Of a DNA stretch of 54,415 bases, positions 12,275 through 37,980 are shown piece after piece (the first letter of the stretch is position 1; each line of letters opens with the position of its first letter). The stretch covers positions 1 through 54,415 of IMG/VR virus record IMGVR_UViG_3300037153_000425; one strand, given 5' to 3'. Source of the stretch: a virus. Its lineage: Duplodnaviria; Caudoviricetes. The position numbers and the translations under genes are program-made. Below the pieces are notes generated by a model. That model was not told the origin of the DNA and ran no database searches. It saw only the letters and a list, made by a program, of their open reading frames with translations.

Positions 12275-12315
12275 GCCCCGCAGGGGCCTTAGCGGGCTTC
12301 CAGCCGCGCGGCTCG

Positions 12316-14495: not shown

Positions 14496-15046
14496 GGCGT
14501 CTGCTCCCCGGCGTCGAGGGCGGCGAGCGCATCAACCAACGCCTGTTCCCAATCCTGATATGGCGGATCGGGGAAGTTTTCCCGCATCTCCCGCGCCGCC
14601 TCCACCACGCGCTCCCGCGCCTGCTCGCGGGCGAGGAGCGCGGCCAGGTCGGGGGCGTTAAGTAATTCGTCGGCGGACTTTGTGACGAGGGTATCTTGTC
14701 CACCCCATGCTCGAAGCGTCGTGCAGGTGGACCGCAGTTCCTTCACCAGCGCCGCGACGTGGGCGCGGAGTTGGTTGAGCCGCGTCGCGCCTTCCCCGAG
14801 GATTCTCCGCTCCGCAGAGGCGGCGTCATGCAGTTCTTCCCCGAGATGCCTGTTCATGTCCGTGAGCCGCGTGTTCTCGGCGCGGAGTTGGTCGCGTTCG
14901 TAGCCAATCGACGCGATACGCTGCTGATCAATACGACCAAGAGAACGGCGCGTTTCCACGTCCTGCGTGAGCCGCGCGTTCTCTTGATTCAGGCGGTCGA
15001 CGCAAGCGCAGCATGCGTGCTCTTGTGGCATGGGGTGCATAGCCAT
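14492..15046 (-). CDS. Coiled-coil hypothetical protein
   Basis: GGAGG RBS; shares LRAHVAALVK, APDLAALLAREQARER and ALDAGEQTP with 50957-51352. Confidence 0.6.
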   Translation of the reverse strand: MAMHPMPQEHACCACVDRLNQENARLTQDVETRRSLGRIDQQRIASIGYERDQLRAENTRLTDMNRHLGEELHDAASAERRILGEGATRLNQLRAHVAALVKELRSTCTTLRAWGGQDTLVTKSADELLNAPDLAALLAREQARERVVEAAREMRENFPDPPYQDWEQALVDALAALDAGEQTP

Positions 15047-15354
15047 AGGACCTCCAGCGGTCGGGCGTAATCTTCGTGGTGCGCGTGCAGGCGAGCTCCG
15101 ATGCCACACCGTTGGCAGGTGGTCGGCGCCACGATGCGCCCGCTGCGACGCGCCTTGTAGAGTTGGCGATGCGCTCGCCGTGCTCCGGGTGTTCGATCGT
15201 ACCAATCCTTCACGCCCGACCGCATTTTCTCCATCCGGCGTCGGTTTCTAATGCGTGCCTGTTCGCGAACGCGCTCGCGATTCTTCTCGCGCCACGCCGC
15301 AGCGATCGCTCGGCGATGGATGCGCGCGGCCTCAGTTGTGGGCTTACTCGCCAT
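14989..15354 (-). CDS. HNH-type endonuclease, variant-1 specific
   Basis: CQRCG...HAHHEDYARPLEVLWLC..CH. Confidence 0.75.
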   Translation of the reverse strand: MASKPTTEAARIHRRAIAAAWREKNRERVREQARIRNRRRMEKMRSGVKDWYDRTPGARRAHRQLYKARRSGRIVAPTTCQRCGIGARLHAHHEDYARPLEVLWLCTPCHKSTHAALASTA

Positions 15355-15384
15355 GCTCCTCCCGCAGCGCCTCGAGGTCGTCCG

Positions 15385-15507
15385 TCATGGGTTCGACACG
15401 CGGTAGAGCACGAGCGTCGAGAACACGCCGAGGAGGCCCGCCGCCGCCCAGAGCGCCAGCACGGCGAGCGTCTCGAGCCAGGTGGCGGGCCGGTCGTCGT
15501 CGTCCAT
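15385..15507 (-). CDS. 40-aa single-TM protein
   Basis: GAGGAGG RBS; near-identical at 51349-51471. Confidence 0.55.
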   Translation of the reverse strand: MDDDDRPATWLETLAVLALWAAAGLLGVFSTLVLYRVSNP

Positions 15508-15508
15508 G

Positions 15509-15811
15509 TCAGCCCTCCTCGCCGGCGCGTCGCGTGCGCCAGCGTCCGGTGCGGGCGTCCTCGGCCGCCCAGTGGGCTTTCCACCACGCGGCGGCCTGCG
15601 CGCGGCGTGCGGTGTCGCGGGTCCATTCGTCTGCCGCACTGACCTGCGGCTCCGCATACTCGCCCCGCTCATAGGCCGCGTGGTCGGCGGGCGTGACTGG
15701 GAGCCCGAGCTGGCGCCGGCGGCGCGCGATGTCCGGCGGGTAGGTGCCGCGGCGCTTCTCCTCGGGCGACTCGACGGCGCCCTCGTCGACCCATCCCCGC
15801 GTTTTTTTCAT
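15509..15811 (-). CDS. Hypothetical protein downstream of the initiator
   Basis: ATGA-coupled; C-terminal WWKAHWAAEDARTGRW shared with 51473. Confidence 0.55.
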   Translation of the reverse strand: MKKTRGWVDEGAVESPEEKRRGTYPPDIARRRRQLGLPVTPADHAAYERGEYAEPQVSAADEWTRDTARRAQAAAWWKAHWAAEDARTGRWRTRRAGEEG

Positions 15812-16563
15812 CCCCGCCTCCGTTCGAGCTCCCAGGCGTTGCGGACCCAGTACTCCCACGCGCGGACCCAATCGGCGTGGCGGACGTCGTCCCGCAGCGC
15901 GTGGGCTTGGAACTTGCCCCACTCGTAGCGGGCGTCGAGCCCTTGCCGGGTCGCGTAGGCTGCGCGCGTCTCGGTCAAGGCGAAGTCATGGGGCCACGGC
16001 GTCTTGGCTTTCGCGCGTGGGGGCGCCGACTTTTCTTTGCGAGCGAAAGCGAGTTTCTTTTGTTCAGATCCGGGTACGGGTACGGGTACGGGATACACGG
16101 GGACAGCATCGGGACTCCCCGGGGGACAATCGTGCATGTCCCCCTCGGTGTCCCCTGGGGACTCCCCCCGGGACAGACGTTGCTTCGCCTTCTTGGATCG
16201 CGCACGTTCGCGATCGGCAAGAACTTTCTCGCGCGGCGGATTGTAGACGAGATAATCGTGCAGCTCCCAATACGCGCCGCGGTCATGCCAGAGGCCGATG
16301 GTCGCGAGCTCCGTGGCGATCTCGTCGGCGTCCAGCGGCAGAAAACGGTCCTCCTCCGGCCCGCAGGCCGGCGGCGCCGCCAAGGCCGTCCCGATGCCAT
16401 CGAGGCAGACCAGGGTCCGCACGCGGAGTTTCGGAATCAGGCCATCGGTCAGATTCCGGGCGCACCACGTGATGGCGGCGACGTGCAGTGCGAAGCCGAG
16501 CGGCCCCGCCGCGATGATTTTCGCGTTGTCGAGAATCGCGTCATCCAGTCGCGCCCAACTCAT
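15808..16563 (-). CDS. Phage replication initiator (variant 1)
   Basis: MSWARLDD...TDG.IP, HDY..YN, PVPVP linker with internal repeats, DnaT-like C-terminus (F..H...DW..AW..W.RN). Confidence 0.75.
   Translation of the reverse strand: MSWARLDDAILDNAKIIAAGPLGFALHVAAITWCARNLTDGLIPKLRVRTLVCLDGIGTALAAPPACGPEEDRFLPLDADEIATELATIGLWHDRGAYWELHDYLVYNPPREKVLADRERARSKKAKQRLSRGESPGDTEGDMHDCPPGSPDAVPVYPVPVPVPGSEQKKLAFARKEKSAPPRAKAKTPWPHDFALTETRAAYATRQGLDARYEWGKFQAHALRDDVRHADWVRAWEYWVRNAWELERRRG
16099..16176. repeat. GGGGAC/GTCCCC iteron-like cluster, candidate origin
   Basis: Several direct and inverted copies in the initiator linker, the lambda-O-like origin position. Confidence 0.5.
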
Positions 16564-16589
16564 CGCAACCCCTCCCCACGCCGCCGGGC

Positions 16590-16853
16590 GGTGCAAAGCG
16601 CGTTGCAAAGGAATTTCTGGCAACACGCGGCATCTGGCGTGAAACGTGACCGATGCCGCCCCACGCGGAATCTGAGGGAGCCTGCGACGTTAGGGTGCGC
16701 CCGCTGCTCGGAGGTGCCAACTGATTCTTGGCGCCGCCCGATTCGTAGTCAGACGCTCTATCCAACTGAGCTATGGGCGCGCAGTAGGGAAGTCGCGGAG
16801 TTAGCGCGATTTGGAGGCCACCGCAACCCCCCGGTGCAAAGCCCGGTGCAAAG
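16590..16853. other. attP-like site 1 (tRNA core with arm-type repeats)
   Basis: G(G/T)TGCAAAG pairs at 16590/16602 and 16833/16845 flank a tRNA fragment downstream of int. Confidence 0.75.
16696..16780 (-). tRNA. tRNA-Arg(ACG) 5' half / T-arm-less tRNA-like element
   Basis: GCGCCCATAGCTCAGTTGGATAGAGCGTCTGACTACGAATC; no GTTCGA T-loop; GGGCGCA recurs at the 3' end. Confidence 0.8.
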
Positions 16854-16874
16854 GATTCGTGTGGCGAATGCATC

Positions 16875-17393
16875 CTAGTCCTGATGAATCCTCTTGTGGC
16901 AGTCAGTACAGATCGCGACGAGGTCGAAAAGCATCTCGCGTCCGAGGCGGCGATAGTGCAGGTGATGCGCCTGCGTGGCCCGTCGCTCTCCGCAGCCTTC
17001 GCACAGGTGGCCCGCGCGGTGCAGGACGCGGCTGCGGCGCGCGTGCCATGCGGGCGTCCTGAGATACTCCTCATAGCGCCGGTGCCATTCCTCGTCCGCG
17101 CGTTGTTGCTCGGCGACATACTGGGCCTGCAGCATCGCACCTCTGACGCGCGCGGCGATGCTGTTCCGGCATCCTTGGCACGTACTGCTGGTCCCCTCGT
17201 TGCGGCCGAGCGCAGTGCCACCGAGTGCCGACGTCTCTCGTCCGCAGACCGTACGGGCCGGATTGTCGAGATGGACGACATGAATCTTGCCGCTGCAGAG
17301 TTGTCCGGTAACCGGGTGCCGATATTGGGCCGCCTGCCAGAGTGGGGCTTCGGACCAGCGCTCGTCTTCTTCGTATGGATCGAGCGTGGGCAT
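16875..17393 (-). CDS. HNH endonuclease between int and attP
   Basis: Y.EYL.TP.W...R, CEGCG...QAHHLHY...DLVAICTDCH; absent next to the second integrase. Confidence 0.8.
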   Translation of the reverse strand: MPTLDPYEEDERWSEAPLWQAAQYRHPVTGQLCSGKIHVVHLDNPARTVCGRETSALGGTALGRNEGTSSTCQGCRNSIAARVRGAMLQAQYVAEQQRADEEWHRRYEEYLRTPAWHARRSRVLHRAGHLCEGCGERRATQAHHLHYRRLGREMLFDLVAICTDCHKRIHQD

Positions 17394-17395
17394 CC

Positions 17396-18535
17396 TCACC
17401 GCTTCCCCTGCCGGCCCCGGAAGCGGGCCCGCTCGGCCGCCACCGTGCGCGCCCGGTCCATCGCCGCGCGCAGCCGCTCGACGTTGCCCATGTCGTAGTT
17501 CCGAAAGACGTAGGCCGTATGATGCCCGGTCACTTTCATGGCGTCGGCCTCCTCGAGCCCGCCGGCCCGCAGCGTGGTCGCCGCCGTGCGCCGCGTATCG
17601 TGGAACACGTAGCCGCCCGCCACCGCGCCGACCGGGAGCGCGGCCGCCGTGCACGCGCGCGCCCACGCCTTCCGAAAATCCCCGAGGCAGCCGTATTTCT
17701 TGGACGGCGCGCGCCCGCCCCGGCACCAGCGCCCGTGAAACAGGTACGGGCACCACGGGCGTGCGGCCGCCAGGGCCTCCTCGACAAGCGTCAAGGACCG
17801 GCCGACGAGCGGCAAGACGTGCGGCTCGCGCGCCTTGCACTCCTCCGGCGGCCACTCGATCACCGCCCGCTCGAGGTCGACGAAGCGGCGCAACGTGCGT
17901 GCCAACTGGCCGCGGCGGATGCCGTTCTCGAGCGCGAATTCGAAGAACACCGCGGCGTAGTCGGGGAGCTGCTCGAGGAGCACGATCGCGTCGCCCGGCG
18001 GCACGTAGCGGGCCCGGCGCCGCCGCCGGCGCTCGTCCCGCATGGCAAAGTACGGCACCCCGCGGAGCTGGCCGGTCTGGCAGGCCAGCCGGTAGGCCCG
18101 GCGCAGCGCCGCGAAGCGGCGATTGATCGTGGCGTTGCTCGCCCCGGCCCGTTTCCAGGCGTCGCCGATGGCGGTCACCTGCTGCGGCGTCACCGTGGCC
18201 GGGCGGAGCGGGCCGACGCCGGCCGCGAGCCACGCCTTGATCGAGCCGCGGACGCTCGGCAGCGAGGTCTGTTCGTTTCGCGTGTAGTCCGCCTCGAGCT
18301 CGGCGAGGAGCTGCGCGACGGTGAGGCGCCCGCTCGGGACCTCCTCGCCGTCGGCGACGGCGGCGAGCCGCTGCGCCCGCAGCCCCCGCGCGGCGCGGAT
18401 CGACGTCGTGCGGGCGCTCTCCTGCCGGACGCGGCCGCCCTGCGTGTAGTGGATCCAGAGCGTCGGGAGCACGGCCGCCGTCCGCGGCGAGATGCGCCGG
18501 AAGATGCCCGGCTCGACGGCGACGGTGCGTTTCAC
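17396..18535 (-). CDS. int: Tyrosine integrase
   Basis: ATINR, GIRRGQL (R), K, FHDTRRT (HxxR), TGH, RNY (Y). Confidence 0.93.
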   Translation of the reverse strand: MKRTVAVEPGIFRRISPRTAAVLPTLWIHYTQGGRVRQESARTTSIRAARGLRAQRLAAVADGEEVPSGRLTVAQLLAELEADYTRNEQTSLPSVRGSIKAWLAAGVGPLRPATVTPQQVTAIGDAWKRAGASNATINRRFAALRRAYRLACQTGQLRGVPYFAMRDERRRRRRARYVPPGDAIVLLEQLPDYAAVFFEFALENGIRRGQLARTLRRFVDLERAVIEWPPEECKAREPHVLPLVGRSLTLVEEALAAARPWCPYLFHGRWCRGGRAPSKKYGCLGDFRKAWARACTAAALPVGAVAGGYVFHDTRRTAATTLRAGGLEEADAMKVTGHHTAYVFRNYDMGNVERLRAAMDRARTVAAERARFRGRQGKR

Positions 18536-18897
18536 GGCAGATCGCCCTGGATCCCCGCGAGCAACTGCCGCTTCCACCAAATGACTTTGCCGTTGGGGTA
18601 CTTGTGGTACCCGGGCAAGTCTTTCCCGCAGTGCCGTAACCGCGATTTCGAGTAGCCGGTGAGCACCATCACCGCGGCGATCCCGAGCGGCTCATCGGGC
18701 TCGACGGCGTGTACCGGCGGCGGGCTCGGCACGGCCAGCTCGACGCACGTCGCCTTCGCGACCTCACAGTGCCCGATCGTCTCGATGGCGTCGCCGAGGC
18801 TGGCGGCATTCAGGGCGGCGCCGAGGGCGAGCTTCACGGCTGCCCACTGCTGGCCGTTCGCCTTGGCGTGGATCGTCGCCCTGGCCCCCGTCGTCAA
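18532..18897 (-). CDS. xis: Excisionase/AlpA-like HTH protein (start uncertain)
   Basis: L.I.AVM.LTGYSKSRL...LP...K...KVIW; GTGA overlap with int. Confidence 0.6.
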   Translation of the reverse strand: MTTGARATIHAKANGQQWAAVKLALGAALNAASLGDAIETIGHCEVAKATCVELAVPSPPPVHAVEPDEPLGIAAVMVLTGYSKSRLRHCGKDLPGYHKYPNGKVIWWKRQLLAGIQGDLP

Positions 18898-21995: not shown

Positions 21996-22006
21996 CGTTA
22001 CACGCG

Positions 22007-22219
22007 ATGGCAGGGAAACGGAACGGGCGGCCGACGCCGATGGACAAGCTGATCGAGGAGAGCGTGCAGCGGGCGCTCGCGACCTGGCTCGCCGGGCAAG
22101 CTGTCCGCGCGACCGAGGCGCTCACCGCCGAAATTTGGGCCGACGAGCAGTTTCGCCAGGATTTCCTCGCGACCGCCCGCGAGGTTGCGCACGAGACGTT
22201 GCAGCGCTTGCGCCGGTGA
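22007..22219 (+). CDS. Hypothetical protein
   Basis: Compact helical ORF in a tightly packed operon. Confidence 0.5.
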   Translation: MAGKRNGRPTPMDKLIEESVQRALATWLAGQAVRATEALTAEIWADEQFRQDFLATAREVAHETLQRLRR

Positions 22220-22224
22220 CCGGC

Positions 22225-22353
22225 ATGGGCGAGCTCACCGCCGATCTGCGGCTGCTCAAGTGGATGGTCGGCACGTTTGGCGTCGTGCTCGTCGGCCTCG
22301 TCGCGGGCCTCTACGCCGTGCTCTTTACCGTCGTCGGGCGGTTGCCGAGATGA
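22225..22353 (+). CDS. Small single-TM protein
   Basis: DLRLLKWMVG followed by a hydrophobic helix. Confidence 0.5.
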   Translation: MGELTADLRLLKWMVGTFGVVLVGLVAGLYAVLFTVVGRLPR

Positions 22354-22523
22354 CCCCTGCCGAGGAGCTCGTCGATTGGACAAGCGAGGCGGGGCTGCGG
22401 GAAATTGAGCGGCGCATTGCCGCGCGCGAGCGGGGCGAACCCGACTCGGTCATCGCGTATGAGCGTATGGTGCGCTACGCCCTCCCGCAGTTAGTGCGCG
22501 TGGCGCGCGTAGCTCGTGGTTAG
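22350..22523 (+). CDS. Hypothetical protein
   Basis: ATGA overlap; ends convergently with the leftward operon. Confidence 0.45.
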   Translation: MTPAEELVDWTSEAGLREIERRIAARERGEPDSVIAYERMVRYALPQLVRVARVARG

Positions 22524-22741
22524 GGCTCGTCGGCCGCGCGCCGGAGCCGCTCGAGCGCATCGTCCTCGAGGGTCGCGAGCACGTCGGCCGGCAGCGCCGC
22601 GGTGATCTCGAGCGCGCCGAGCGTGACGCGGAGCTCGACGGCATCGGGCTCGGGCGCCGTCCACGGGCCACCGCGCGCCCCGCAGATGGCCAGGACGACC
22701 TCGACCGTCACCGGGAGCTCGAGGTCGACCGTGTAGGTCAC
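22520..22741 (-). CDS. Hypothetical protein
   Basis: GTGA-coupled ORF VTYTVDLELPV... Confidence 0.5.
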   Translation of the reverse strand: MTYTVDLELPVTVEVVLAICGARGGPWTAPEPDAVELRVTLGALEITAALPADVLATLEDDALERLRRAADEP

Positions 22742-22905
22742 GCCGGCGGGGCTTGGATGATGCCGAGGACCGTCAAGACGCGCTCGAGCGTCGCCGTGAC
22801 GAACGCGGCCGAGCCGGCGACCTCGACGTCCAGGCCGTCGGAGCGTTTCACCTTGACCGAGGCGGGCGTCGCGTCGGCGGCGTCGGGGTGGCGAGTTGCG
22901 GCCAT
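22738..22905 (-). CDS. Hypothetical protein (55 aa)
   Basis: GAGGAGG RBS and promoter motif upstream. Confidence 0.5.
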   Translation of the reverse strand: MAATRHPDAADATPASVKVKRSDGLDVEVAGSAAFVTATLERVLTVLGIIQAPPA

Positions 22906-22956
22906 GGGCGGATCCTCCTCGGGGCGGGCCGTGTAGCATGTGGCCCGGGGCGGGCG

Positions 22957-23154
22957 TCAATCGCCGACGTACCGCGCCTGCTCGAGCGTGCGCACGAGCG
23001 CGCCCAAATACTCGGTCAAGATGGCGCGCCGGGCCTGGCTCGGGCGGCGGTCGTCGAGCCGGCGGAGATACGCCTGGAGGTGATTGATGGCCCAGTCGGC
23101 ATGCTCGGCCTCGAGCCGTTTCGCCTCGTACCACTCGCCCGGATCACGCGCCAT
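22957..23154 (-). CDS. Hypothetical protein
   Basis: Starts 1 nt after the HNH stop; natural composition. Confidence 0.5.
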   Translation of the reverse strand: MARDPGEWYEAKRLEAEHADWAINHLQAYLRRLDDRRPSQARRAILTEYLGALVRTLEQARYVGD

Positions 23155-23155
23155 G

Positions 23156-23629
23156 TTACGCTGCGGCCCCACCACCGCGGCGCGTGCGGGCACGCGATGT
23201 CCTCACCACGTCGCCACGCGGCCCGCTCCCCGTCAGCACACGGCTGGACTCGGCACGGCAGGCTTTGCAGAGGCGCCGGCCTTTCCAGCGATAGAGATTC
23301 GAGCCCGAGAATGGATGCCCGCGGAGGCAATGTGTTTTCCGAGACTCTCGCCCGCCCCACCCATTGCCGCGCAGGATGTTCTCGCGGTGTAACACGGGCT
23401 CGAGATGGTCCGGGCGCACACACGCAGGCTGTCGGCACAAGTGATCGAGCTCGAGAGTCGCCGGCAGCGGCCCGTGAAGCTGCTCGTAAACGAGCCGATG
23501 CGCGAGCCAGTGTCGCCGACCATACCAGACCCGTCCGTAGCCCCGGAGCGTGGGCCCCTGCCACAACCAGCAGTCTGCCGTAAAGTCTACCCGTGCGAGG
23601 ATACGGCGCCACCTAACCGAGTTGGTCAT
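23156..23629 (-). CDS. HNH homing-type endonuclease
   Basis: CWLWQG...GYG...AHR...LDHLC..PACV.P.HL...EN; KTHC.RGH...C..C. Confidence 0.88.
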   Translation of the reverse strand: MTNSVRWRRILARVDFTADCWLWQGPTLRGYGRVWYGRRHWLAHRLVYEQLHGPLPATLELDHLCRQPACVRPDHLEPVLHRENILRGNGWGGRESRKTHCLRGHPFSGSNLYRWKGRRLCKACRAESSRVLTGSGPRGDVVRTSRARTRRGGGAAA

Positions 23630-24311
23630 GCACGAGATCCTTAAAAAAGCCGGGCCCGGCCGAGCTGACCGCCGTGAGGCGTCCCCCACCTTCGATGGTC
23701 GGGCGAAGTGCAACCCAAGTTTCGAAGGCATGGTCCCAGAATGCTACTTCGTCCGCTAATACAGATGTGAAAGTGTGCTGGCGGGCCTGCTCCTCGCCCT
23801 CGCCGAGCGCCACGATCTCCGAGCCATTCGGGAAGCGGAGAAACCCGATCGAGTACTCGGTCTCGCAGGGCGGAAACGTCGCCGGTAGGTGATCGTGAAT
23901 GAACTTGGCGCGCCGCACGAGCTCGGCCGACCCCTCGGTCTCCGTCTTGCCGAGCTTGCGGGCCATGAACGCGACCTTCGCATGCGGGGAAAACCGCGCG
24001 AGCCAGTAGTTGACCGCGACAAAGAGCCAGGTGACGACCATGCGCCGGGATTTGGGCACGGCCAGGAGGGGATGCTCTTGCCACCGGCGGACCAGCAGCT
24101 CGGCGTACGCATGCGCGGGGTACCGCCGCACGCGGCCGGTCACCTCGTCCCGCGTCCACACGCAGTCGCGCACAAACGCCCACGGGTCGCCCGCGGCGCC
24201 GTACGTCGCCAGCGTTTTGCGTTGCTCGAGGAGTAAGCGCGCCGCCGCGCGCATCGCGAGCGGATGGTCGGGGCCGAGGACGCGGCCCGCGCCGGCGCCC
24301 GGCTCAGGCAT
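23613..24311 (-). CDS. terL: Terminase large subunit, ATPase domain only (232 aa)
   Basis: Walker A-type VPKSRRMVVTW, F.NGS.I, Walker B VLADEVAF, coupling motif VSSA; stops 13 aa later. Confidence 0.85.
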   Translation of the reverse strand: MPEPGAGAGRVLGPDHPLAMRAAARLLLEQRKTLATYGAAGDPWAFVRDCVWTRDEVTGRVRRYPAHAYAELLVRRWQEHPLLAVPKSRRMVVTWLFVAVNYWLARFSPHAKVAFMARKLGKTETEGSAELVRRAKFIHDHLPATFPPCETEYSIGFLRFPNGSEIVALGEGEEQARQHTFTSVLADEVAFWDHAFETWVALRPTIEGGGRLTAVSSAGPGFFKDLVHDQLG

Positions 24312-24603
24312 CGGGCACGCGCGTGCCGCCCCGGGCGCGGTCGTAGGTCGTGAGCGCCGCCCGTCCCTGCGCGGCGGCGATGCCGCGCTCGTAGGCGCTC
24401 AACGCCGTGAGGCCCTCCAGCAGCCACGCCCGGAGGTCCTCGTCCTCGAGGCACCCGTCGCGGCACGCCTCCCAGAGGTCCGTGAGCGCCTCGCCGATCG
24501 CCGACAGCTGGCCCCGCTGCGCCTCGCTCATGCACCCCGAGCACGCCGCCCGCGTCACCCGGGCGACGAGCCGCAGGCGCCCGAGTTGCACCGTCCCCAT
24601 CAT
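24304..24603 (-). CDS. Hypothetical protein between terS and the terL ATPase
   Basis: Overlaps both neighbours. Confidence 0.55.
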   Translation of the reverse strand: MMGTVQLGRLRLVARVTRAACSGCMSEAQRGQLSAIGEALTDLWEACRDGCLEDEDLRAWLLEGLTALSAYERGIAAAQGRAALTTYDRARGGTRVPDA

Positions 24604-25280
24604 CCCCCGCCCTCCGGCCCCGGCAAGAGCCCCGCCACGCCCGCAAAGCGCTCGGGCCACTCGCCCCGCGCCGAGAACGCCTCCAGCTCCGCATCCGAGA
24701 GCTGCTCGAGCACATGCAGGTGGAGATGCGCCGTCCGCGCCACCTTGTCCCCGCTCGTCGTGAGCACCAGGTCGGCGGCCCGAATCGCGTCCGCATCGCG
24801 CTTGGCCCGCCCGACCCGCGTGCCGGTGGCTTTGTCCTTCCGCCCGCCCGCGAGCTCCGCCACGTGCTCCATCACCGCCGGCGCCGCCGCCTTCGCCTGC
24901 GCCGCCACCCCGAACTCGCCCCGCATGACCCGCTCGAGCTGCGCATCGCGCACCAAGGCGATGATCCGTTGCACGGCGGGATGCTTGAGGGCGTTGCGCG
25001 CCGCCTCGGTCGTCGTGTAGCCGATCGCCCGCGCAATCGCGTCGGCGTTGTAGCCGCCCAAGTACAGCATGGCGACCGACCAGAGCCGCGCCTTGGTCGA
25101 GCGCCGCAGTTCCTCGAGGCTCATGGAGCTACACGCCTCGAGCCACGCCTTGGCGTTGGCGAGCCGCTCGGCCCGCGTCCGCTTCCACGACGCCTGCATG
25201 GCGGCGACCCGCTCGGCCAAGACCTCGGGCGGCGCCCCGAGATGCGCTTGCGTCCCCGGCCCCGTCCGCCCGCCGCTCAT
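24600..25280 (-). CDS. terS: Terminase small subunit-like HTH protein
   Basis: G.NA..IARAIGY...A...LKHP.V HTH; LSDAELE C-terminus; upstream of the ATPase. Confidence 0.65.
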   Translation of the reverse strand: MSGGRTGPGTQAHLGAPPEVLAERVAAMQASWKRTRAERLANAKAWLEACSSMSLEELRRSTKARLWSVAMLYLGGYNADAIARAIGYTTTEAARNALKHPAVQRIIALVRDAQLERVMRGEFGVAAQAKAAAPAVMEHVAELAGGRKDKATGTRVGRAKRDADAIRAADLVLTTSGDKVARTAHLHLHVLEQLSDAELEAFSARGEWPERFAGVAGLLPGPEGGG

Positions 25281-25732
25281 GCGACCCGCTCCCAGCGGAG
25301 CTTCTCTTGCCAGGGCTCGTAGTCGACCCGGGGCCGCGCGGGCCGCGACCACGACGCCCGCGGCACGGTCCCCGCCACCACGAACCCCGCCGCCCGCAGG
25401 CTCGCGCCCGACTCGTCCGGCCGCGTGTAGGTGACGACCTGGCGATACCCGAGCGCCCGCCCCAACTGCCGCGCCGCCCCGTAGAGGAAGCTGCACGCAT
25501 TGCGCGTCCCGTCCGTGGCGACGCGCGTGATCTCGACCGTCGGCACGGCCCGCGCCTGCAGGCCCGCCGCCACCGGCCGCCCGACAATCGCCACCCCGAC
25601 GATGCGCGCGCCCAGCGTCGCCGCGATCGCGGCCTTCGCGCCGCGCACCGGGCGGCTGTGGCGGTGCCAGCGCTCGACGAACGCCTGCGCCTGCCGCAGC
25701 GTGATCGGCGCCAGCGCCAGCCGCTCGCTCAT
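25277..25732 (-). CDS. XF1762-like / Mom-related GNAT-fold protein
   Basis: FV.RWHRH, VGVAIVGRPV, E.TR..TDG..NACS.LYGA, TYT...ESGASL.A.G. Confidence 0.75.
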   Translation of the reverse strand: MSERLALAPITLRQAQAFVERWHRHSRPVRGAKAAIAATLGARIVGVAIVGRPVAAGLQARAVPTVEITRVATDGTRNACSFLYGAARQLGRALGYRQVVTYTRPDESGASLRAAGFVVAGTVPRASWSRPARPRVDYEPWQEKLRWERVA

Positions 25733-26694
25733 GCGCCCGCCCCGATAGCATACCGCCCCCCGCCCGCCTAGCCACCCGGCCCCGTCCGCAGGGTGGTGCC
25801 TGCGAGATGGGCACCGCCGGTCGGCCGTCGCCCCGGCCGTGCCCGGGCCCCGGCGTCGGGGACGGCTCGCGCTCGCGCGCTCCCGGCCCGGCCAGGCGCG
25901 GGTTGCCGCATCCTGGCCAGCCAGCGAGCTAGCAGGCCAGCCAGCAGGCTAGCCTGACAGTGGGGCTGCTGACCCCCCGCCAGGGGGGTGCGAGCGAGCG
26001 GAGCGAGCGGCTGGTCCGATCCCGGGCCCCCACCGCGGCGCGGATTGGGTAGCAAGGTGCGGATCTGGCGTGCTATCACCGGGGGCGGGGTGGGGCCAGC
26101 ACGGCCCGCGCGCGTCCGCGCGAGGGGAATCCCCCCCTGACCCCCCCCTTACGGGCTGGGGTCGGCGGTGCCTGACGGACGGCCGCCGGGTTGGCGCGAG
26201 CCGCTCCCGGGAGCTGCCAGGCTCCCTGCCGGCCGCGGGGCGGGCAGGGACCAGACGGGCGGGTCCACTCCCCACCGCCACAGGCTCCTCGAGGCGTCGG
26301 ATGTGGTCGGCCCGGCGCTCTTAGCCCATCGCCCTACCGCGGTTCGTTACGCGGGATGCAGGGCGGTATTCTCCCGGCCGGGCGACATGTCAAGACCCGC
26401 GGCCGGGGAGGGTCAGCGTCATCCAGCGGGGCAGCGCGGGGCAGAGGGCGCTGGGGGAATGGGTGCGGTGGCGGTCCCGGCAGAGGCAGCGGCGGTGCAT
26501 GCTGCGGTAGAAGGTGGGATCATCGGCGCGTGAGGCATAGCGCCGCGGGGGGGCGTGGTCGCTGGCGGTGTCCTCGAGGGGGATGCCGAGACGGCCGCGG
26601 TCGCGGGCGCGTAGCGCTTCATGGCTCCGTCTGCCCATGGGCCCGGGCTTGTAGCCGACGCGGGGCCCGGTGCCAATCCCGTGTGGCACGGGAC

Positions 26695-26724
26695 TTGACG
26701 GGCCGGGGGGTGGAATGGCACACG
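26695..26724 (+). promoter_or_regulatory. Late-promoter motif TTGACG-N18-CACACG
   Basis: Same spacing at 29910 and 34235. Confidence 0.6.
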
Positions 26725-26743
26725 CCCCGCCCCGTCGAGACGC

Positions 26744-27013
26744 ATGGCGAGGCCCCCCGAGCCGGTCGATCACGATTGCACCGCCCCCGGTGTGTCCCTC
26801 GGGGTCGGCCGGCTCTCCCCCCCCGCGCGGCTGCTCACCCGGGTGCTCGGGCTGCTCGAGCGGCTCGATGCCCGGGAGGTGACGGCGGCGGAGCTGCCCG
26901 GCGCCGTGGCCCTGGCCGAGGCCGTCCTCGCCGAGGTGGCGACCTTGCGGACGCGGCTCGCGCGCCGGCTGGCCCCCGAGGTCTGGCCGGTGCCACCGGT
27001 GGGGCGCCCATGA
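26744..27013 (+). CDS. Hypothetical protein, first late gene
   Basis: Follows the promoter motif; ATGA-coupled to the next gene. Confidence 0.5.
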   Translation: MARPPEPVDHDCTAPGVSLGVGRLSPPARLLTRVLGLLERLDAREVTAAELPGAVALAEAVLAEVATLRTRLARRLAPEVWPVPPVGRP

Positions 27014-27342
27014 GCGCGCCGGGTGGGCCGGGGCCGGCGCCCGGCGGTCCGCCGCTGCCGGGGTGGCTCGGGCCGATCGTCACCGTGACGACGCAGGTCG
27101 GCGTGCCGACCGTCTTTGCGGGCGTGCTCCTCTGGTTCGTCCTCTTGAAGGTCGGCGGCGCCATGGAGGCGATGCAGAAGGGCGAGGAGGACCGCACGCG
27201 CGTCATGGCCGCCATGCAGGACACGCTGATTGCGGCGCTCGACCGGCTCGGGGCGCGCTTCGAGAAGGCGGTGGACGAGAATATCCGCGTCAACCGCGAG
27301 CTGGCGAGCCATTACGCGTCGCCGCCGGCGCCGAGCCGATGA
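27010..27342 (+). CDS. Holin-like TM plus coiled-coil protein 1
   Basis: TQVGVPTVFAGVLLWFVL helix upstream of the endolysin. Confidence 0.6.
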   Translation: MSAPGGPGPAPGGPPLPGWLGPIVTVTTQVGVPTVFAGVLLWFVLLKVGGAMEAMQKGEEDRTRVMAAMQDTLIAALDRLGARFEKAVDENIRVNRELASHYASPPAPSR

Positions 27343-27695
27343 CCGCGCCCGGTGCGGCGCCGCCGGGGGGCCCGCCGCTCCCCGGATGGCTCGGCCCGCT
27401 GGTCGCGATCGTCACGCAAGTGGGCGTGCCGACCGTGGTGGCGGGCGTGTTGCTCTATTTCGTGCTCTTTCGGATCGACACGTCGATGAAATACATCCAG
27501 CAGCAAGAAGATGCGCGGACGCAGTTGGTCATGCAGATGCAACAGCAGCTGGTTGAGACCTTGGATCAGCAAACCGACCGCTTCGAATCCGCGATCGAGA
27601 AGAATATCGCGGCCATCGACCGCAATGTGGCCATCAACAAGGACCAGACGGACCGGCTCGAGCGCGCGCTCGGCCTCCATCGAGGCTCGCCATGA
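27339..27695 (+). CDS. Holin-like TM plus coiled-coil protein 2 (paralogue)
   Basis: Near-identical N-terminus to 27010. Confidence 0.6.
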   Translation: MTAPGAAPPGGPPLPGWLGPLVAIVTQVGVPTVVAGVLLYFVLFRIDTSMKYIQQQEDARTQLVMQMQQQLVETLDQQTDRFESAIEKNIAAIDRNVAINKDQTDRLERALGLHRGSP

Positions 27696-28282
27696 TTCAG
27701 CGCAAATATTTTTTCGATAGCGTCCGCGGCTCGTTGTTTGCGGGCTCGTTGGCGCAATCGCAGGTCGATGGGTTGACCGCGCTCTTGGATTACGCCGAGG
27801 CGCACGGGGTCGACGACCGTCACCTGGCCTACGTGCTCGCGACCGCGTATCACGAGACGGCGCAGACCATGCAACCGATTGCCGAGTACGGGAAAGGGAA
27901 GGGCAAACCCTACGGCGTGCCCGATCCGCAGACGGGACAGACATATTACGGCCGCGGCTACGTGCAATTGACGTGGAAAGACAATTACCAGAAACAAGAT
28001 ACGAAATTGGGCCTCAAAGGCACGCTCGTCGCCAACGCCGACCTGGCATTGGAGCCCGAGACCGCCAAGCGGATCCTCTTTGCCGGGATGTATGACGGCG
28101 ACTTCACCGGCGTCGGGTTGCCGAAGTACATTCCGTGCGCGAATCCCGAGACGGATGCGACCGATTTCTACAACGCTCGGAAGATCGTGAACGGATTGGA
28201 CTGCGCGACGCAGATTCAAGGCTACGCGACCAAGTTTGCCAACGCCATTGCGCACGCCGCGCGCCCCACGGTCGCGGCGTGA
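27692..28282 (+). CDS. GH19-family endolysin
   Basis: AYVLATAYHET, YYGRGYVQLTW..NY, ARKIVNG. Confidence 0.88.
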   Translation: MIQRKYFFDSVRGSLFAGSLAQSQVDGLTALLDYAEAHGVDDRHLAYVLATAYHETAQTMQPIAEYGKGKGKPYGVPDPQTGQTYYGRGYVQLTWKDNYQKQDTKLGLKGTLVANADLALEPETAKRILFAGMYDGDFTGVGLPKYIPCANPETDATDFYNARKIVNGLDCATQIQGYATKFANAIAHAARPTVAA

Positions 28283-28293
28283 GAGGAGCGACC

Positions 28294-28410
28294 ATGCCCA
28301 AGCGCCCCGAGGACGAGGGCCCGCCGCCCGCCGACGACGACGCCGTCAAGGACTTGGAGGACCCCGAGCCCGAGCCGCCCGAGGAGGACCCGGAGGACGC
28401 CGGCGCGTAG
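28294..28410 (+). CDS. Small acidic peptide
   Basis: GAGGAG RBS; D/E/P-rich 38 aa. Confidence 0.45.
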   Translation: MPKRPEDEGPPPADDDAVKDLEDPEPEPPEEDPEDAGA

Positions 28411-28413
28411 TCG

Positions 28414-28920
28414 ATGGCGTGGTACTACCCGGAGACGCGGCCGCAACGCCGGCCGCTGACGACGCCGATCCGGTCGGGGGGCAACGGCGGCGGCACGGTC
28501 GGGCCCCCGGGGCCGCAGGGGCCGCAAGGGCCCCCGGGTGATCCGGGCCCCACGGGCCCCGCCGGCCCGACCGGCGCCACCGGATCGACCGGGCCCCAAG
28601 GCCCCAAGGGCGACCCCGGGGCGACCGGCGCGACCGGCCCGACGGGCCCCGGCGTCGCCGCGGGCGGCACGACCGGGCAAGTGCTCGCCAAGACGAGTGC
28701 CGCGGACTACGCGACCGCGTGGACGACGCTCGGGGGCGGGGCGCCGAGCGGCCCCGCTGGCGGCTCGCTCGCGGGCACGTATCCGAACCCGACGCTGGCG
28801 CCGAGTGGCGCGACGGCGGGCACCGCTGGCGACCAGTACCACGTTGCTCAAGTCACCGTGAATGCCGAGGGCCGCGTGACCACGGTCGTGCAAGTGCTGA
28901 TTCGCGCCCGCTGGGGCTAA
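28414..28920 (+). CDS. Collagen-like (Gly-X-Y) protein
   Basis: [10 protein letters not shown]... repeats, [30 protein letters not shown]. Confidence 0.8.
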
Positions 28921-28921
28921 G

Positions 28922-29791
28922 ATGCCGTTTCTCGGCGCGCGCGGCGCGGCGCCCGATCCGCGCGGCGCCGCCGCGCAGCCCATTCCGGGTGTGACCGAGT
29001 GGCGGTGTCCGCGGAATGGCGTCCACGTCGTCGAAGTCCACTACACCGCCGACCCCGCGAAGCGCGATCCCGCGTGGAAGCGGGAAGCGATGCGCGGCAT
29101 GCCGCCGCGCGGCTGGCAACGCGAGTTCGAGATTGCCTTCGACTTGGCCGCGGGCGAGCCGGTGTTGCCGGAATACGTGCCCGCGGAGATGCGCCGCCCG
29201 TTTCCCGTCAGCGCCGGCGCGCGGCTCTTGCGCGGCTGGGATTTCGGGCAGGTGTGTCCCGTGACGCTCTTTGCGCAGCTCGACGTCTACGGGCGCCTCG
29301 GGTTTGTCGCGGAGCTCGTCCTCGAGCATGCGAATCTGACGACGCAGATCGAGGCGACGAAGGCCATGACGCTCGAGCTCGTCGGCGCCAGTGCCAATTG
29401 CTTCGACGCGGGCGATCCCGAGGCGTTGCATGAGATGGAGCTTGGGTCGATTCGCGCCGCGCTCTTGAAGCACGGAATCATTCTCCAGACCTTCGGCGGC
29501 CGCGGCGACGCGTCCTATAACAACTTGCGCGACCGGCTCTTGCGGCGTGTGCGGATTCCCGGCGAGGAGCTCCCGTCGCCGGCGTTGATCGTCGATCCGC
29601 GCTGCCCGATTCTCCACAGCGCGTTCTCGGGCGGCTTCGCGCGGCACGGGAAAACGGGCAAGCCGATGCCGACGCATCCGTACAAGGACGTCGTCGATGC
29701 CGCGCGCTACTTGAACGACAACCTGCAAGGGTCGGCGTCCGACTGGATGCTCAAGCTTCAGGCGATCGCGCGGGCCGACTGCGCATGGTGA
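28922..29791 (+). CDS. terL: Terminase large subunit, lid plus RNase H-like nuclease domain only (289 aa)
   Basis: HYTADP...W.REFEI.F...G.PV, RGWDFG, GDP, DVVDAARY; directly upstream of portal. Confidence 0.85.
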   Translation: MPFLGARGAAPDPRGAAAQPIPGVTEWRCPRNGVHVVEVHYTADPAKRDPAWKREAMRGMPPRGWQREFEIAFDLAAGEPVLPEYVPAEMRRPFPVSAGARLLRGWDFGQVCPVTLFAQLDVYGRLGFVAELVLEHANLTTQIEATKAMTLELVGASANCFDAGDPEALHEMELGSIRAALLKHGIILQTFGGRGDASYNNLRDRLLRRVRIPGEELPSPALIVDPRCPILHSAFSGGFARHGKTGKPMPTHPYKDVVDAARYLNDNLQGSASDWMLKLQAIARADCAW

Positions 29792-29909
29792 GATATTGGC
29801 ATTGCCGACACTGCGGGCAAGGTGACCACCAGGTCACCAACCCGCTCCTCCTCGGCCCATTCGACGCGGGATGCATCTGTCTCCGCTGCCTCCTCGGTAA
29901 GGTCGCACG

Positions 29910-29939
29910 TTGACGAGCCGGGGGGGTGCCCGCTACACG
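29910..29939 (+). promoter_or_regulatory. Late-promoter motif TTGACG-N18-TACACG
   Basis: Directly upstream of the portal ATG. Confidence 0.6.
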
Positions 29940-29961
29940 GGCCCGCCCGAGACCCTCGGGC

Positions 29962-32475
29962 ATGGCACGGCGAGCCGCCGGCGGCGCTGCAGCCGCCACG
30001 TTGGGCCCCGGGCGGGGCGCCCCGCCGAGCAATCTGGCGCTCGACCCGGAGATTGCCGCCCGCGTCAAGAACGAGCTGATCCCGCTCGTCCGCCGCACCC
30101 GCCAGGAGCGCAACGGCGTGCTCCGCGAGCGCTGGCTCCGCTACTACCGCATCTGGAGCGTCCGGCACGATCAGCAGGGCTATCGCGGCCGCACCAACAC
30201 GTACTTTCCGCTCGGGCGGCGCTGGATCGAGCAGTGGGTCACTCGGCTCAAGCGCGACCTCTTCCCCGATCAGGACTGGTTTGCGTGCCGCGCCTTGCGG
30301 GAGGATTTCGAGGCCCGCGTGCCCGCCAAGGTGGCGCTCCAGAAGTACTGGATGCGCCGCCACATGCGGCTCCGCACGCACGCGCTCCCCTGGCTCCGCC
30401 AGCTCGTCACCTACGGCACGTCGCCCGTCCGCAACGTGTGGCGCTGCGTCGAGCACGAGCAAACGGTGCTGCGCGACGTCCTCGACGACGACGGCACGCC
30501 GTCCGGCCGCACGGTCGACCAGGTCGAAAAGGTGGCCGATTTCTTGGGGCCCACGTTCGAGCCGGTCGACCTCTTTGCGTTCTACGTCTGGCCGCCGACC
30601 GCGGCGGGCCTGGCCGACGCGACGCTGGCCTTCGAGGACCGCTGCGTGCCGCGGAGCCGCGTCTATGCGCTCGCCGACCGCCCGCTGGATCCGTCCCATC
30701 CCGATGCCGGCAACGTGTACGAGGGCGTCGGCGGCTTGGTCGACCTCTACGATACGGCGATTGCGAATCGCACCGGCGGCGGCACGCGCAACCCCGAGAA
30801 ATACGACGCGCTCGCGCAACGGCTCGCCGACAAGGGCTTCACGGCGCCGCTCGATGCGAACGTGCCCGCCGCGCTCCGCCCGCTCGATCTGACCGAATGC
30901 ATGTGGACGGTCGATCTCGAGGACGACGATCCGGCGCCGTATCTCGTGACCCTCGGCGCCGACGAGATTCCGCTCCGTGTGCAGCGCCGCCCCTTTTTCC
31001 ATGGCGGCTCGCAATGGCTCGTCGGCCGCTTCGTCCAGGTCGCCGAGGAATTCTACGGCCGCGGGCTCTGCGAGCTCTTTGATTACATGCAGTACTTCGT
31101 CAACGACCTCGGCAACCAATCGGGTGACGCGTTCATCTGGTCGACCAACCCGATTGCGGTCGTCGATATCGGCGCCGTCCAGGATCCGACGTCGCTCCGC
31201 ATGGCGCCCGGCGCCAAGTGGCTCGCGAATCCCGCCGGCGTGCAATTCACGACGCCGCCGCAAGGCGCCGCGCAAGCGGGCTTCGAGGCCGTCTCGAATT
31301 ACGTCGGGCTCGCCGATACCTTGGTGGCGCCGACGCCGGCGCGCCCGATGGCGCCGCAGCAGCAAGGGCCGCAAGACGCCGCCGGCTTGGCGGCGCAGCT
31401 TGCGGACTCCGCCGTCGACCTCCGCGCCATCGTCGAGAATCTCGAGGACGATGTCATGGTGCCGCTGCTCGAGCGCAGCGACATTCTGACCCAGCAGTGT
31501 CTCGACCGCGACATCATCCTGAAAGTCGCCGGGGCCGACGGCCTGGAGCTCGTCGAGCATCCGATCACGGTCGCCGATCTGGTCGGCGAGTACGAATGGG
31601 AATGGCTCGGGACGACCAACGCGCTGAACCAGCAAGTGCGCGCGCAGCAGATGGTGCAGGGCATCGCGCTCCTGACGCAGGTGCCGCAGGACCAGCTCGG
31701 CGCGCAGGGCGTCACGATTGATTGGCCCTACGTGCTCCGCACCTTCTGGTCGGTCGGCCTCGGGCTCCCCGACGCCGAGCGCGTCATCAAGACGGCGAAG
31801 CTCGAGCCGTCGGACTGGCGGTGGGAGAACGCGCTGGCGCGTGTGAATCGCGCCGAGGAGCTCCGCGTGTCGCCGCAAGACGATCACACGGCACATATCC
31901 AGGGGCACCAATCCCTGCTCGAGAGCGACAGTCTGACCGAGGACGCCCGGACGGGGCTCCAGGCGCACGTCCACCAACACATCGGGCTCGCCATTGCCGC
32001 CGAGGCGCAAGCGTTGTCGCAGGCCATGGCACAGCTCGCCGGCCCCGCCGGTCTGCCCGGGCCGCCCGGGCCTCCGCCGGGAGCGCCTCCTGGCCTGCCA
32101 CCGGGCCCTCTCCCCATGCCCGGCGGTGGGCCCCCTCCGCCGCCGGGGGCGCTCCCGCCGGGTGCTCCGCCCGGCGGCCCGCCCGGGCCGCCCCCGATGC
32201 TACCGCCGGGACCGCCGCCTGGCGCGCCCCCGATGGTCCCACCGCGCTTTGTGCCGGGCGTGCCCGGGGCCGGCGTCAACGCGCTCGCCCGGTTGCTCGG
32301 GCCGCCGACCGGGCCCCGAGGCGGCGGGCCGGCGCGGCCGCATAGCGACGCCCGGAACCGCGCCAAGGCAGTGCTGGGCATCCGGCCACCGGCGCCGCTC
32401 GGGCAAGGCCGCGTCGGCAAGACGCGCGGCATGGCCGATTTGTTCCGGGGCCTCCCGCGGCTCCCGACGGTCTGA
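29962..32475 (+). CDS. Portal protein (podovirus type) with Pro-rich tail
   Basis: W...Y, LFP..DWF, YGT, FYGRG, PGA.W motifs; follows the terminase nuclease. Confidence 0.85.
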   Translation: MARRAAGGAAAATLGPGRGAPPSNLALDPEIAARVKNELIPLVRRTRQERNGVLRERWLRYYRIWSVRHDQQGYRGRTNTYFPLGRRWIEQWVTRLKRDLFPDQDWFACRALREDFEARVPAKVALQKYWMRRHMRLRTHALPWLRQLVTYGTSPVRNVWRCVEHEQTVLRDVLDDDGTPSGRTVDQVEKVADFLGPTFEPVDLFAFYVWPPTAAGLADATLAFEDRCVPRSRVYALADRPLDPSHPDAGNVYEGVGGLVDLYDTAIANRTGGGTRNPEKYDALAQRLADKGFTAPLDANVPAALRPLDLTECMWTVDLEDDDPAPYLVTLGADEIPLRVQRRPFFHGGSQWLVGRFVQVAEEFYGRGLCELFDYMQYFVNDLGNQSGDAFIWSTNPIAVVDIGAVQDPTSLRMAPGAKWLANPAGVQFTTPPQGAAQAGFEAVSNYVGLADTLVAPTPARPMAPQQQGPQDAAGLAAQLADSAVDLRAIVENLEDDVMVPLLERSDILTQQCLDRDIILKVAGADGLELVEHPITVADLVGEYEWEWLGTTNALNQQVRAQQMVQGIALLTQVPQDQLGAQGVTIDWPYVLRTFWSVGLGLPDAERVIKTAKLEPSDWRWENALARVNRAEELRVSPQDDHTAHIQGHQSLLESDSLTEDARTGLQAHVHQHIGLAIAAEAQALSQAMAQLAGPAGLPGPPGPPPGAPPGLPPGPLPMPGGGPPPPPGALPPGAPPGGPPGPPPMLPPGPPPGAPPMVPPRFVPGVPGAGVNALARLLGPPTGPRGGGPARPHSDARNRAKAVLGIRPPAPLGQGRVGKTRGMADLFRGLPRLPTV

Positions 32476-37630: not shown

Positions 37631-37980
37631 TCGCCCGGGGCCCTGCGGCGCGGCTCGGGCCGACGCCCCCGTTTTCCGGCCAGCTCCTCCGCGTGACGGG
37701 CGAGGGCGAGCAGGTGACGATCGCCTTCACGGCGTCGACGTCCGCCGAGCTCGCCGAGGCGCTCGCCATTGCCGGCGCCGCCGCCCTCGCCCGCCTGAAA
37801 GCCAACAACGCCGCCGTCCTCGAGGCCGGCGCGCACTTCGAGGACCGGCAACGCCAGGTGTACGCGCACGCGGTGGCGCAGCTCCGCCGCGAGCTCGGCG
37901 TGCCCGACCCGCCCGCGGAGGAGGACGCGACCCGTGCCGACGATCCCGCCGGGGCGGTACACGCGGCAGAAAATCCGTGA
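37627..37980 (+). CDS. Hypothetical protein
   Basis: ATGA-coupled. Confidence 0.5.
   Translation: MIARGPAARLGPTPPFSGQLLRVTGEGEQVTIAFTASTSAELAEALAIAGAAALARLKANNAAVLEAGAHFEDRQRQVYAHAVAQLRRELGVPDPPAEEDATRADDPAGAVHAAENP

Follow-up and report, generated by a model that had tools for sequence, protein, structure and literature searches.

Does a tailed phage exist that encodes the large terminase subunit (TerL) of its DNA packaging motor as two polypeptides from opposite strands? This question is raised by the IMG/VR virus record IMGVR_UViG_3300037153_000425, a stretch of 54,415 bp with a G+C content of about 70%, which was analysed at full length and is referred to as the window. A sequence-only reading of the window had assigned the ATPase part and the nuclease part of TerL to separate genes. 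The first of them, open reading frame (ORF) A, also termed TerL-N, is located on the minus strand at positions 23613-24311 and specifies a protein of 232 amino acids, whereas ORF B (TerL-C) is located on the plus strand at positions 28922-29791 and specifies a protein of 289 amino acids. Both ORFs are uninterrupted, the genes are divergent with start codons separated by 4,610 bp, and each half matches the record exactly once. With a probability of roughly 0.82, the two ORFs constitute a natural two-chain TerL, in which ORF A provides the nucleotide-binding core and ORF B the remainder of the ATPase domain fused to the nuclease. This interpretation is based on the identity of the halves, on their colinearity with fused relatives, on a split and an orientation that are both conserved, and on the purifying selection acting on the genes.

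ORF A was recognized as a terminase ATPase by comparison with described proteins. It matched the terL family PHROG 2 (phrog_2) with an E value of 8.3e-7 and the ATPase domain of T4 gp17 with E values of 3e-8 as a single sequence and 2.7e-11 as a profile of 12 sequences, and the profile alignment covers residues 133-314 of gp17 (chain 3cpe_A). The alignment with gp17 extends through residue 220-221 of ORF A, placing the last match 12 residues before the C-terminus. The motif KSRR (residues 87-90), the residues DE of LADE (187-188) and the residues SS of VSSA (216-217) vary little or not at all among 12 homologues, which extend down to 50% identity. When transferred to gp17, KSRR corresponds to the Walker A loop, LADE to Walker B and VSSA to the C-motif. 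A tblastn search with ORF A yielded matches of 24-29% identity in 1516 GenBank phage records, and most of the 30 GenBank matches listed fall under terL annotations. Searches of the window for a second terL showed that phrog_2 matches ORF A alone and that PF03354 and PF03237 match nothing, in line with the earlier view that no other terL is present in the genome equivalent.

ORF B displays the lid region and the nuclease motifs that the sequence-only reading had ascribed to it. The motifs HYTADP (residues 40-45), W.RE.E (65-70), WD.G (106-109), GDP (164-166) and KD..DA.RY (255-263) are invariant or nearly invariant in 12 homologues down to 41% identity, and the acidic residues D107, D165, D256 and D259 are invariant over the same range. 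The spacing of these acidic residues resembles that in the gp17 nuclease. An AlphaFold2 model of ORF B, calculated with 12 homologues, reached a mean predicted local distance difference test (pLDDT) score of 66.7 with a good core. A Foldseek search with this model returned D6E TerL (E value 8e-7), the SPP1 G2P nuclease (4e-6) and the G20c nuclease (5e-5), each with a probability of 1.00, as well as T4 gp17 (4e-3), and the fold matches also included Avs3 bound to terminase (8dgc). These matches, along with those of ORF A to gp17 and phrog_2, identify the ORFs as the two parts of one TerL. The relatives of ORF B are annotated as 'hypothetical'.

Profiles of both halves were applied to six-frame translations of related loci and revealed a series of arrangements. 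All 18 loci with 28-30% identity (L121-L138) contain a single ORF of 513-577 amino acids, in which the match to the ORF A profile is followed by that to ORF B; in most of these loci the two matches are 3-10 residues apart, with A ending at about residue 231 and B beginning at about residue 235. The fused proteins of these uncultured phages (about 517 amino acids) share 37-39% identity with ORF A and about 29% with ORF B in the case of L121, L123 and L138, the respective values for L134 being 31% and 28%. In a BLASTP comparison with the fused protein of L123, residue 232 of ORF A aligned with residue 232 and residue 17 of ORF B with residue 242, so that the break replaces a linker of about 10 residues. 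The fused proteins and the two ORFs are strictly colinear. The linker of the fused proteins is acidic and short (about 10 residues), and at this point the window has the stop codon of one ORF and the start codon of the other, with 4.6 kb of other genes between them. Five contigs with 42-49% identity (L054/L120, L055/L119, L116, L117 and L118) carry two separate, co-oriented genes, the ATPase gene being the first, with gaps of 0.76-3.7 kb. The split and divergent state is found at 71% identity or more, in the window clade, a group of uncultured soil phages. A quick maximum likelihood tree, calculated for the nuclease part, placed this clade inside the co-oriented split group with a support of 99; the tree comprised 113 rows, namely 150 representatives minus 28 fragments and 18 ambiguous sequences, plus the window and 8 locus proteins.

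The arrangement observed in the window is shared by its close relatives. Pattern scans of IMG/VR provided 54 loci with relatives of ORF A and 57 loci with relatives of ORF B, and 12 contigs, originating from 10 metagenome data sets, contained both halves with an identity of at least 71%. The halves are located on opposite strands in all 12 contigs, as a divergent pair inside one locus in ten of them and according to contig coordinates in another; in the remaining contig the genes are located near opposite ends, and the divergent pattern fits if this contig is circular. In the relatives, the two start codons are separated by about 5.6 to 10.8 kb, compared with 4.6 kb in the window, and the cargo between the halves varies, including the endolysin gene, a Mom-like gene and others. 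Both codons bounding the split, the stop of ORF A and the start of ORF B, are conserved in the relatives; apart from the distant fused L056, every homologue whose 3' end is complete has the ORF A stop codon at the identical position (63 of 65 rows, with duplicates of the same contig included). In five soil DNA runs, the sampled words of the region 22800-30200 were recovered to a fraction of 0.91 or more. In three soil runs not flagged as source (X3, X4 and X5), short Logan contigs bridged the junction of ORF A with the adjacent HNH endonuclease gene (X3, 22814-23843; X4, 23336-24253; X5, 22909-23814) and, in two of them, the junction of ORF B with the preceding collagen-repeat gene (X4, 28760-29239; X3, 28854-29116). 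Since all 12 contigs share the orientation and other runs bridge both gene ends, the divergent arrangement is not an assembly error. Pairwise ratios of nonsynonymous to synonymous substitution rates (dN/dS) within the clade ranged from 0.03 to 0.16 in ORF A and from 0.07 to 0.26 in ORF B; the ratios are rough because synonymous sites are near saturation, but they are still clearly below 1 and indicate that both halves are under purifying selection. As proposed initially, the two parts are intact, separate genes located in divergent blocks.

The position of the break was related to the protein structure by predicting the complex of the two chains. Each of three runs gave a score of 0.90, the best control reaching 0.01; the contact agreement between the runs was at least 90% and the partner pLDDT at least 77. 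In the calibration, the 0.90 mark was reached by 58 of the 80 solved complexes and by 2 of the 110 mismatched pairs, values that apply only roughly here in view of the custom alignments. Confident contacts in the predicted complex connect residues 67-93 and 214-231 of ORF A with residues 10-44, 56 and 67-74 of ORF B, and the tightest pairs involve residues 34-39 of ORF B and residues 82-88 of ORF A, the latter representing the strand that enters Walker A. In ASCE ATPases, the strand following the sensor or C-motif strand adjoins the Walker A strand. According to the model, ORF B appears to supply this next strand and the lid to ORF A in trans, which agrees with the low confidence of residues 1-80 of ORF B when folded alone. 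ORF A by itself is unlikely to be a working ATPase, because the break is located inside the ATPase domain and the next strand and the lid are encoded by ORF B. As ORF B is moreover predicted beside the Walker A strand, the two chains most likely form an obligate pair. If the prediction is right, the ATPase site would be complete only in the heterodimer, and there would be neither a free-standing translocase nor a free-standing cutter.

In the mechanism proposed here, the two chains would be translated separately from the divergent gene blocks and would associate non-covalently, the N-terminal 75 or so residues of ORF B packing on ORF A and completing the sheet beside the Walker A strand. The heterodimer might then act on the portal in the manner of an ordinary TerL protomer. 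We infer the physical association of the chains, their stoichiometry and their function on the portal. The sequence-only reading had envisaged a two-chain packaging motor whose cutting and translocating parts can be regulated separately. The comparative evidence lends good support to the two chains, but not to the division of labour, since the break lies inside the ATPase domain and ORF B holds a strand of this domain and the lid; the break position therefore does not favour separately regulated cutting and translocation.

Several findings weigh against a two-chain TerL. The canonical Walker A lysine is absent from ORF A: the loop reads K-S-R-R-M-V-V-T instead of containing the GK[ST] signature, and the position of the gp17 lysine is occupied by valine. 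The activity of ORF A thus rests on the assumption, made by analogy, that the invariant K87, which opens the Walker A loop, replaces the missing lysine; deviant Walker A motifs of this type occur in other terminases. Neither half matches any Pfam model, ORF B matches no PHROG and no PDB sequence, and the ORF B alignment, used as a profile against the PDB, returned chance-level matches only. The quality of the ORF B model is moderate, and in the fold of ORF B without its partner, residues 1-80, the proposed interface, stay under a pLDDT of 55. The score of the complex may be a matter of model memory because single-chain TerL structures have been solved, and would in that case express likeness and not binding. 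The RNA run X7, which holds 0.13 of the sampled words, provided seven contigs, none of them on ORF B and one (23276-23711) covering the HNH gene and the 3' end of ORF A; this run weighs neither way on expression because it is too sparse and DNA carry-over is possible. A cultured relative of the clade was not found by tblastn in 50,697 GenBank phage records. No host is named here, because a metagenome-assembled genome (MAG) tagged Steroidobacteraceae and a MAG tagged Gaiellales each contain an ORF B homologue of 74-75% identity, and these disagreeing labels may reflect binning. Finally, the record is not a clean single genome. A self-comparison of the window identified positions 1-18791 and 37965-54415 as diverged copies with 70-97% identity, so that the window looks like 1.4 units of a genome of about 38 kb, a unit size that is consistent with related contigs of 37.5-39.1 kb. 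The duplicated ends could represent tandem related prophages or an assembly joining two strains. The split-terminase region is present once and outside the duplicated ends.

These points have to be considered along with other explanations of the locus. Functional divergence would mean that ORF A acts alone as a phi29-like translocase, perhaps with the HNH protein as cutter, and that ORF B is an independent nuclease which no longer binds ORF A. The HNH gene directly following ORF A and the distribution of the halves over different transcription units are compatible with this scenario, and HNH-assisted terminases are known in HK97-like phages. A conserved HNH gene beside the terminase genes, which is an HK97-type feature, was however not observed among the relatives holding both halves. 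In these, the gene was detected in a single contig, a relative with 98% identity (L057 10899-11273; contig ..037153_000752), where it is located between the nuclease gene and the portal gene and not after the ATPase gene; L054, a distant locus with co-oriented genes, has an HNH match about 6 kb upstream of its ATPase gene, and the gene is missing from the other close relatives fetched. Such shifts and absences are expected of a mobile homing-type gene, and the HNH gene is probably a mobile free-standing gene and no fixed part of the motor. Furthermore, ORF B retains the strand and the lid of the ATPase domain with invariant residues, the predicted interface is formed by exactly this segment, and, from contig to contig, the identity of one half to the window follows that of the other. 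Functional divergence is therefore regarded as improbable. The integrase encoded in the window and the diverged duplication, features that integrated elements often have, might suggest a defective prophage with decaying terL remnants. Both ORFs are nevertheless intact in dozens of contigs, with dN/dS ratios well below 1 and invariant catalytic residues, and no other terL is available in the window for the job, which makes decay very unlikely. An inversion, either misassembled or programmed to fuse the halves in lytic growth, is suggested by the fact that flipping 23613-28921 sets ORF A directly before ORF B, and by the unusual 1.4-unit assembly of the record. The common orientation in 12 contigs from 10 data sets and the bridged junctions speak against it, convincing flanking inverted repeats were not found (the best end pair comprises 23 nt with 83% identity and is one of 200 such pairs in 9 kb), and even after flipping a stop codon and a start codon would separate the ORFs, as in the co-oriented relatives that also have two genes. 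The chance that an inversion accounts for the locus is consequently minimal.

Another possibility is that a trans-splicing intron, or a split intein as in cyanobacterial DnaE, joins the two parts again at the level of RNA or protein. Mirusvirus and alloherpesvirus terminases are reported to have ATPase and nuclease parts that are far apart, occasionally on opposite strands, and are trans-spliced to one mRNA (PMC12768974), and among the published cases found these terminases are the closest parallel at the DNA level. They belong to eukaryotic viruses, however, and are split near Walker B (PMC12768974), whereas the ORFs of the window are cut after the C-motif and show no sign of an intron. In phages, group I introns were reported to split terL of the Jug phages, with splicing seen in RNA reads (PMC12880540), and the terminase of Staphylococcus phage Twort is annotated as three coding sequences (PMC13729910). 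Those terL pieces share one orientation, and group I splicing restores the gene, whereas no intron was detected in the window and cis-splicing is excluded because the halves are located on opposite strands. A search of the region 22000-31000 against Rfam gave no match at E values up to 1, a search that detects described intron families only, and no match at the gathering score was obtained in 21 related loci. Conserved intron halves are absent, as the flanking genes differ among the relatives. There is no room for an N-intein, since ORF A ends 12 residues past the last gp17 match, nor for a C-intein, since residue 17 of ORF B already aligns with the fused relative. In addition, ORF B starts one base past the preceding stop codon, and the start and stop codons are conserved. 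Taken together, a rejoining of the halves is highly unlikely, and a TerL that functions as two separate chains remains the preferred interpretation.

The distribution of two-gene terminases was analysed by a profile search in 1.84 billion representative proteins, which yielded 1729 matches at E values up to 1e-3. Among the best 150 of these 1729 matches, 80 were classified as stand-alone proteins (at most 400 amino acids, with a methionine start at the same profile position), 24 as fused to an ORF A-like N-terminus, 28 as fragments and 18 as ambiguous. Fused and stand-alone proteins interleave on the tree, which is unrooted and contains many weak branches, with 18 parsimony changes, of which at least 8 are forced by well-supported branches. 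Genomic context was available for 42 further loci with 25-38% identity to the query used, representing about 20 lineages because many are near-duplicates. The ATPase gene is located just upstream on the same strand in 33 of them, four loci are fused, five have no visible ATPase gene in the available flank, and none is divergent. The 33 co-oriented pairs have the same cut point and their own start and stop codons; they are mostly adjacent, with a spacing ranging from overlaps to 3.9 kb, and their junctions look like those of ordinary coupled genes, for instance with ATGA overlaps. The expectation of the sequence-only reading that known splits are adjacent and co-oriented fits these loci, which differ from the window in orientation. 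Three tblastn queries of the 50,697 GenBank phage records detected distant matches only, and the two cultured examples inspected were fused. These data indicate that a two-gene TerL cut at this site is widespread and essentially undescribed, and that the separation and inversion of the two genes is new in the window clade.

With respect to characterized systems, the single-chain TerL proteins T4 gp17, D6E, G20c/P74-26 and SPP1 G2P have the same ATPase motifs, the same RNase H-like nuclease fold and the same N-to-C order, and their nuclease region is located beside the portal, likewise in the window. The window differs from them by two polypeptides encoded on opposite strands 4.6 kb apart, by the cut after the C-motif and by the deviant Walker A motif. 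In T4-like phages, 'genes in pieces' are known, in which ribonucleotide reductase or DNA polymerase is split by a homing endonuclease gene and the chains reassemble. The window resembles them in having an essential enzyme in two chains and an HNH gene beside one piece, but in most relatives there is no HNH gene at the split, and the TerL pieces are inverted in addition. Actinobacteriophage annotation lists appear to contain separate entries for a terminase 'ATPase domain' and 'nuclease domain'. For Parabacteroides phage phiPDS1, two adjacent terL coding sequences were described, and the authors suspected a codon-table or assembly issue (PMC10773633). In the literature searched, which consisted of open texts without supplements or subscription journals, no description of a phage TerL as two chains from opposite strands was found, and among the papers listed, subunit names of terminases followed P2-type and herpesvirus usage only.

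The series of arrangements can be arranged into an evolutionary scheme. The ancestor would have been a fused TerL, fission in the short linker after the C-motif would have produced two co-oriented genes, and in the window clade the block with the terS candidate and the ATPase gene would then have been turned around with respect to the nuclease-portal block, the cargo between the two blocks being variable. The order of fused, split and adjacent, and split and inverted genes thus illustrates clearly how a core virion gene underwent fission and was subsequently rearranged. It is doubtful, though worth formulating in view of the interleaving of fused and split proteins on the tree, that the split after the C-motif is an adaptive and repeatedly evolved design whose benefit is an assembly checkpoint or the escape from host sensors. 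At such a checkpoint, the terS-ATPase core chain might load on DNA without burning ATP until the lid-nuclease chain, made with the portal and the capsid, arrives; this would restate the idea of separate regulation in a form compatible with the structure, and the divergent clade would be furthest along. Alternatively, a split protein might evade host sensors of the whole TerL fold, an example of which is Avs3, bound to a terminase in the structure 8dgc among the fold matches.

TerL is a hallmark enzyme of tailed phages and herpes-like viruses and serves as a marker for phage detection and classification and as a model of packaging motors. A natural cut between the catalytic core and the lid and nuclease implies that the covalent link is dispensable, and a two-piece TerL represents a ready system for studying the communication of the lid and nuclease with the ATPase. 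Pipelines that expect one terL product of 400-700 amino acids would miss or miscount these phages, because the halves escape Pfam and ORF B also escapes the PHROGs.

The genes surrounding the two halves are compiled below. Starting from the divergence, the leftward block contains the Mom-like gene, the terS candidate, a small orphan ORF, ORF A and the HNH gene, and the rightward block the small ORFs, the endolysin gene, the collagen-repeat gene, ORF B and the portal gene.

Table 1. Predicted features of the split-terminase region of the window, sorted by position (GC3, G+C content at third codon positions; HTH, helix-turn-helix)
Feature	Position	Strand	Evidence or remark
HNH endonuclease, directly 3' of TerL-N	23156..23731	-	PF13392, E 1.2e-11; phrog_826, E 4e-43
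TerL-N (ORF A), ASCE/RecA-like ATPase core	23613..24311	-	phrog_2 and T4 gp17 matches; ends just past the C-motif
Small ORF between the terS candidate and TerL-N	24304..24660	-	GC3 0.92
Candidate terS, helical, HTH-like N-terminal part	24603..25280	-	AlphaFold2 pLDDT 72.4
Mom-like DNA modification gene, first in leftward block	25277..25732	-	phrog_1384, E 6.5e-33; PF25680, E 0.003 (sub-threshold)
Gap of about 1 kb between the divergent blocks	25733..26743		no convincing ORF under the GC3 filter
Small ORFs ahead of the endolysin gene	26744..27695	+	weak Rz-like spanin match, E 0.007
Endolysin, GH19-like	27692..28282	+	phrog_181, E 6e-27; PF00182, E 3e-4 (sub-threshold)
Collagen-repeat fibre-like protein	28414..28920	+	PF01391, E 1.2e-5; tail-fibre PHROGs
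TerL-C (ORF B): last ATPase strand and lid (about residues 17-75), then RNase H-like nuclease (D107, D165, D256/D259)	28922..29791	+	
Portal, next gene after TerL-C	29926..32475	+	phrog_332, E 2.8e-9; PF23899 SU10_portal, E 1e-3 (sub-threshold)

The likely start of the HNH gene is at position 23632, resulting in an overlap of about 20 nt with the stop of ORF A. The sequence-only reading had placed terS beside the ATPase gene. In the relatives, the candidate precedes the ATPase gene on the same strand, at varying distance, and its identity as terS is weakly indicated: the candidate of the window had no significant PHROG, Pfam or PDB profile match, its homologue in L055 matched the terS family phrog_2538 weakly (E value 0.0068), and the best Foldseek match, the G20c small terminase, was not significant (E value 0.52). 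The terS candidate adjoins the ATPase gene in some relatives (L005, L008, L035 and L041) and is located 4-5.6 kb upstream in others (L034 and L050). Judged from these loci, the packaging module of the clade appears to be unusually open to insertions. The small ORF between the terS candidate and ORF A, with a core of 74 amino acids, had no family match and no tblastn match in any other fetched locus. In the relative L058, a Mom-like gene is located directly upstream of the nuclease gene instead.

The gap between the divergent blocks presumably holds the promoters. A scan of the region 22000-30000 with the sigma-70 consensus yielded no promoter, and a scan of the same region for terminators yielded six terminator-like sites that are uninformative, one of them being located within conserved codons of ORF A. 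The small ORFs ahead of the endolysin gene possibly specify lysis accessory proteins, in view of the weak spanin match. Positions 26992-27146 and 27321-27469 form an internal duplication with 74% identity, the sequence of which suggests two paralogous small lysis-associated proteins. A single base separates the stop codon of the collagen-repeat gene from the start codon of ORF B, and the portal gene is syntenic in the relatives. The portal protein of 849 amino acids contains a long C-terminal tail of low complexity that is rich in proline and glycine.

Further observations concern the ends of the window and the more distant loci. The duplicated ends, 16-19 kb in size, contain tail genes, a RuvC-like resolvase gene and the integrase gene. 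All five co-oriented contigs carry two ORFs of about 100 amino acids without a family match directly upstream of the nuclease gene (L054 10744-11407, L055 13719-14372, L116 2211-2942, L117 9324-10016 and L118 9363-9969); a search for this pair in the window gave no match better than an E value of 0.067, and one marginal match was detected in L049 (E value 7e-4). Two homologues of the nuclease half, P0063 with 642 and P0095 with 622 amino acids, contain an insert of about 340-380 residues that breaks the match and could be an intein or an inserted endonuclease. In L055, a protein of 829 amino acids is encoded between the terL halves (10652-13141), which by eye resembles a beta-helix fibre or a depolymerase.

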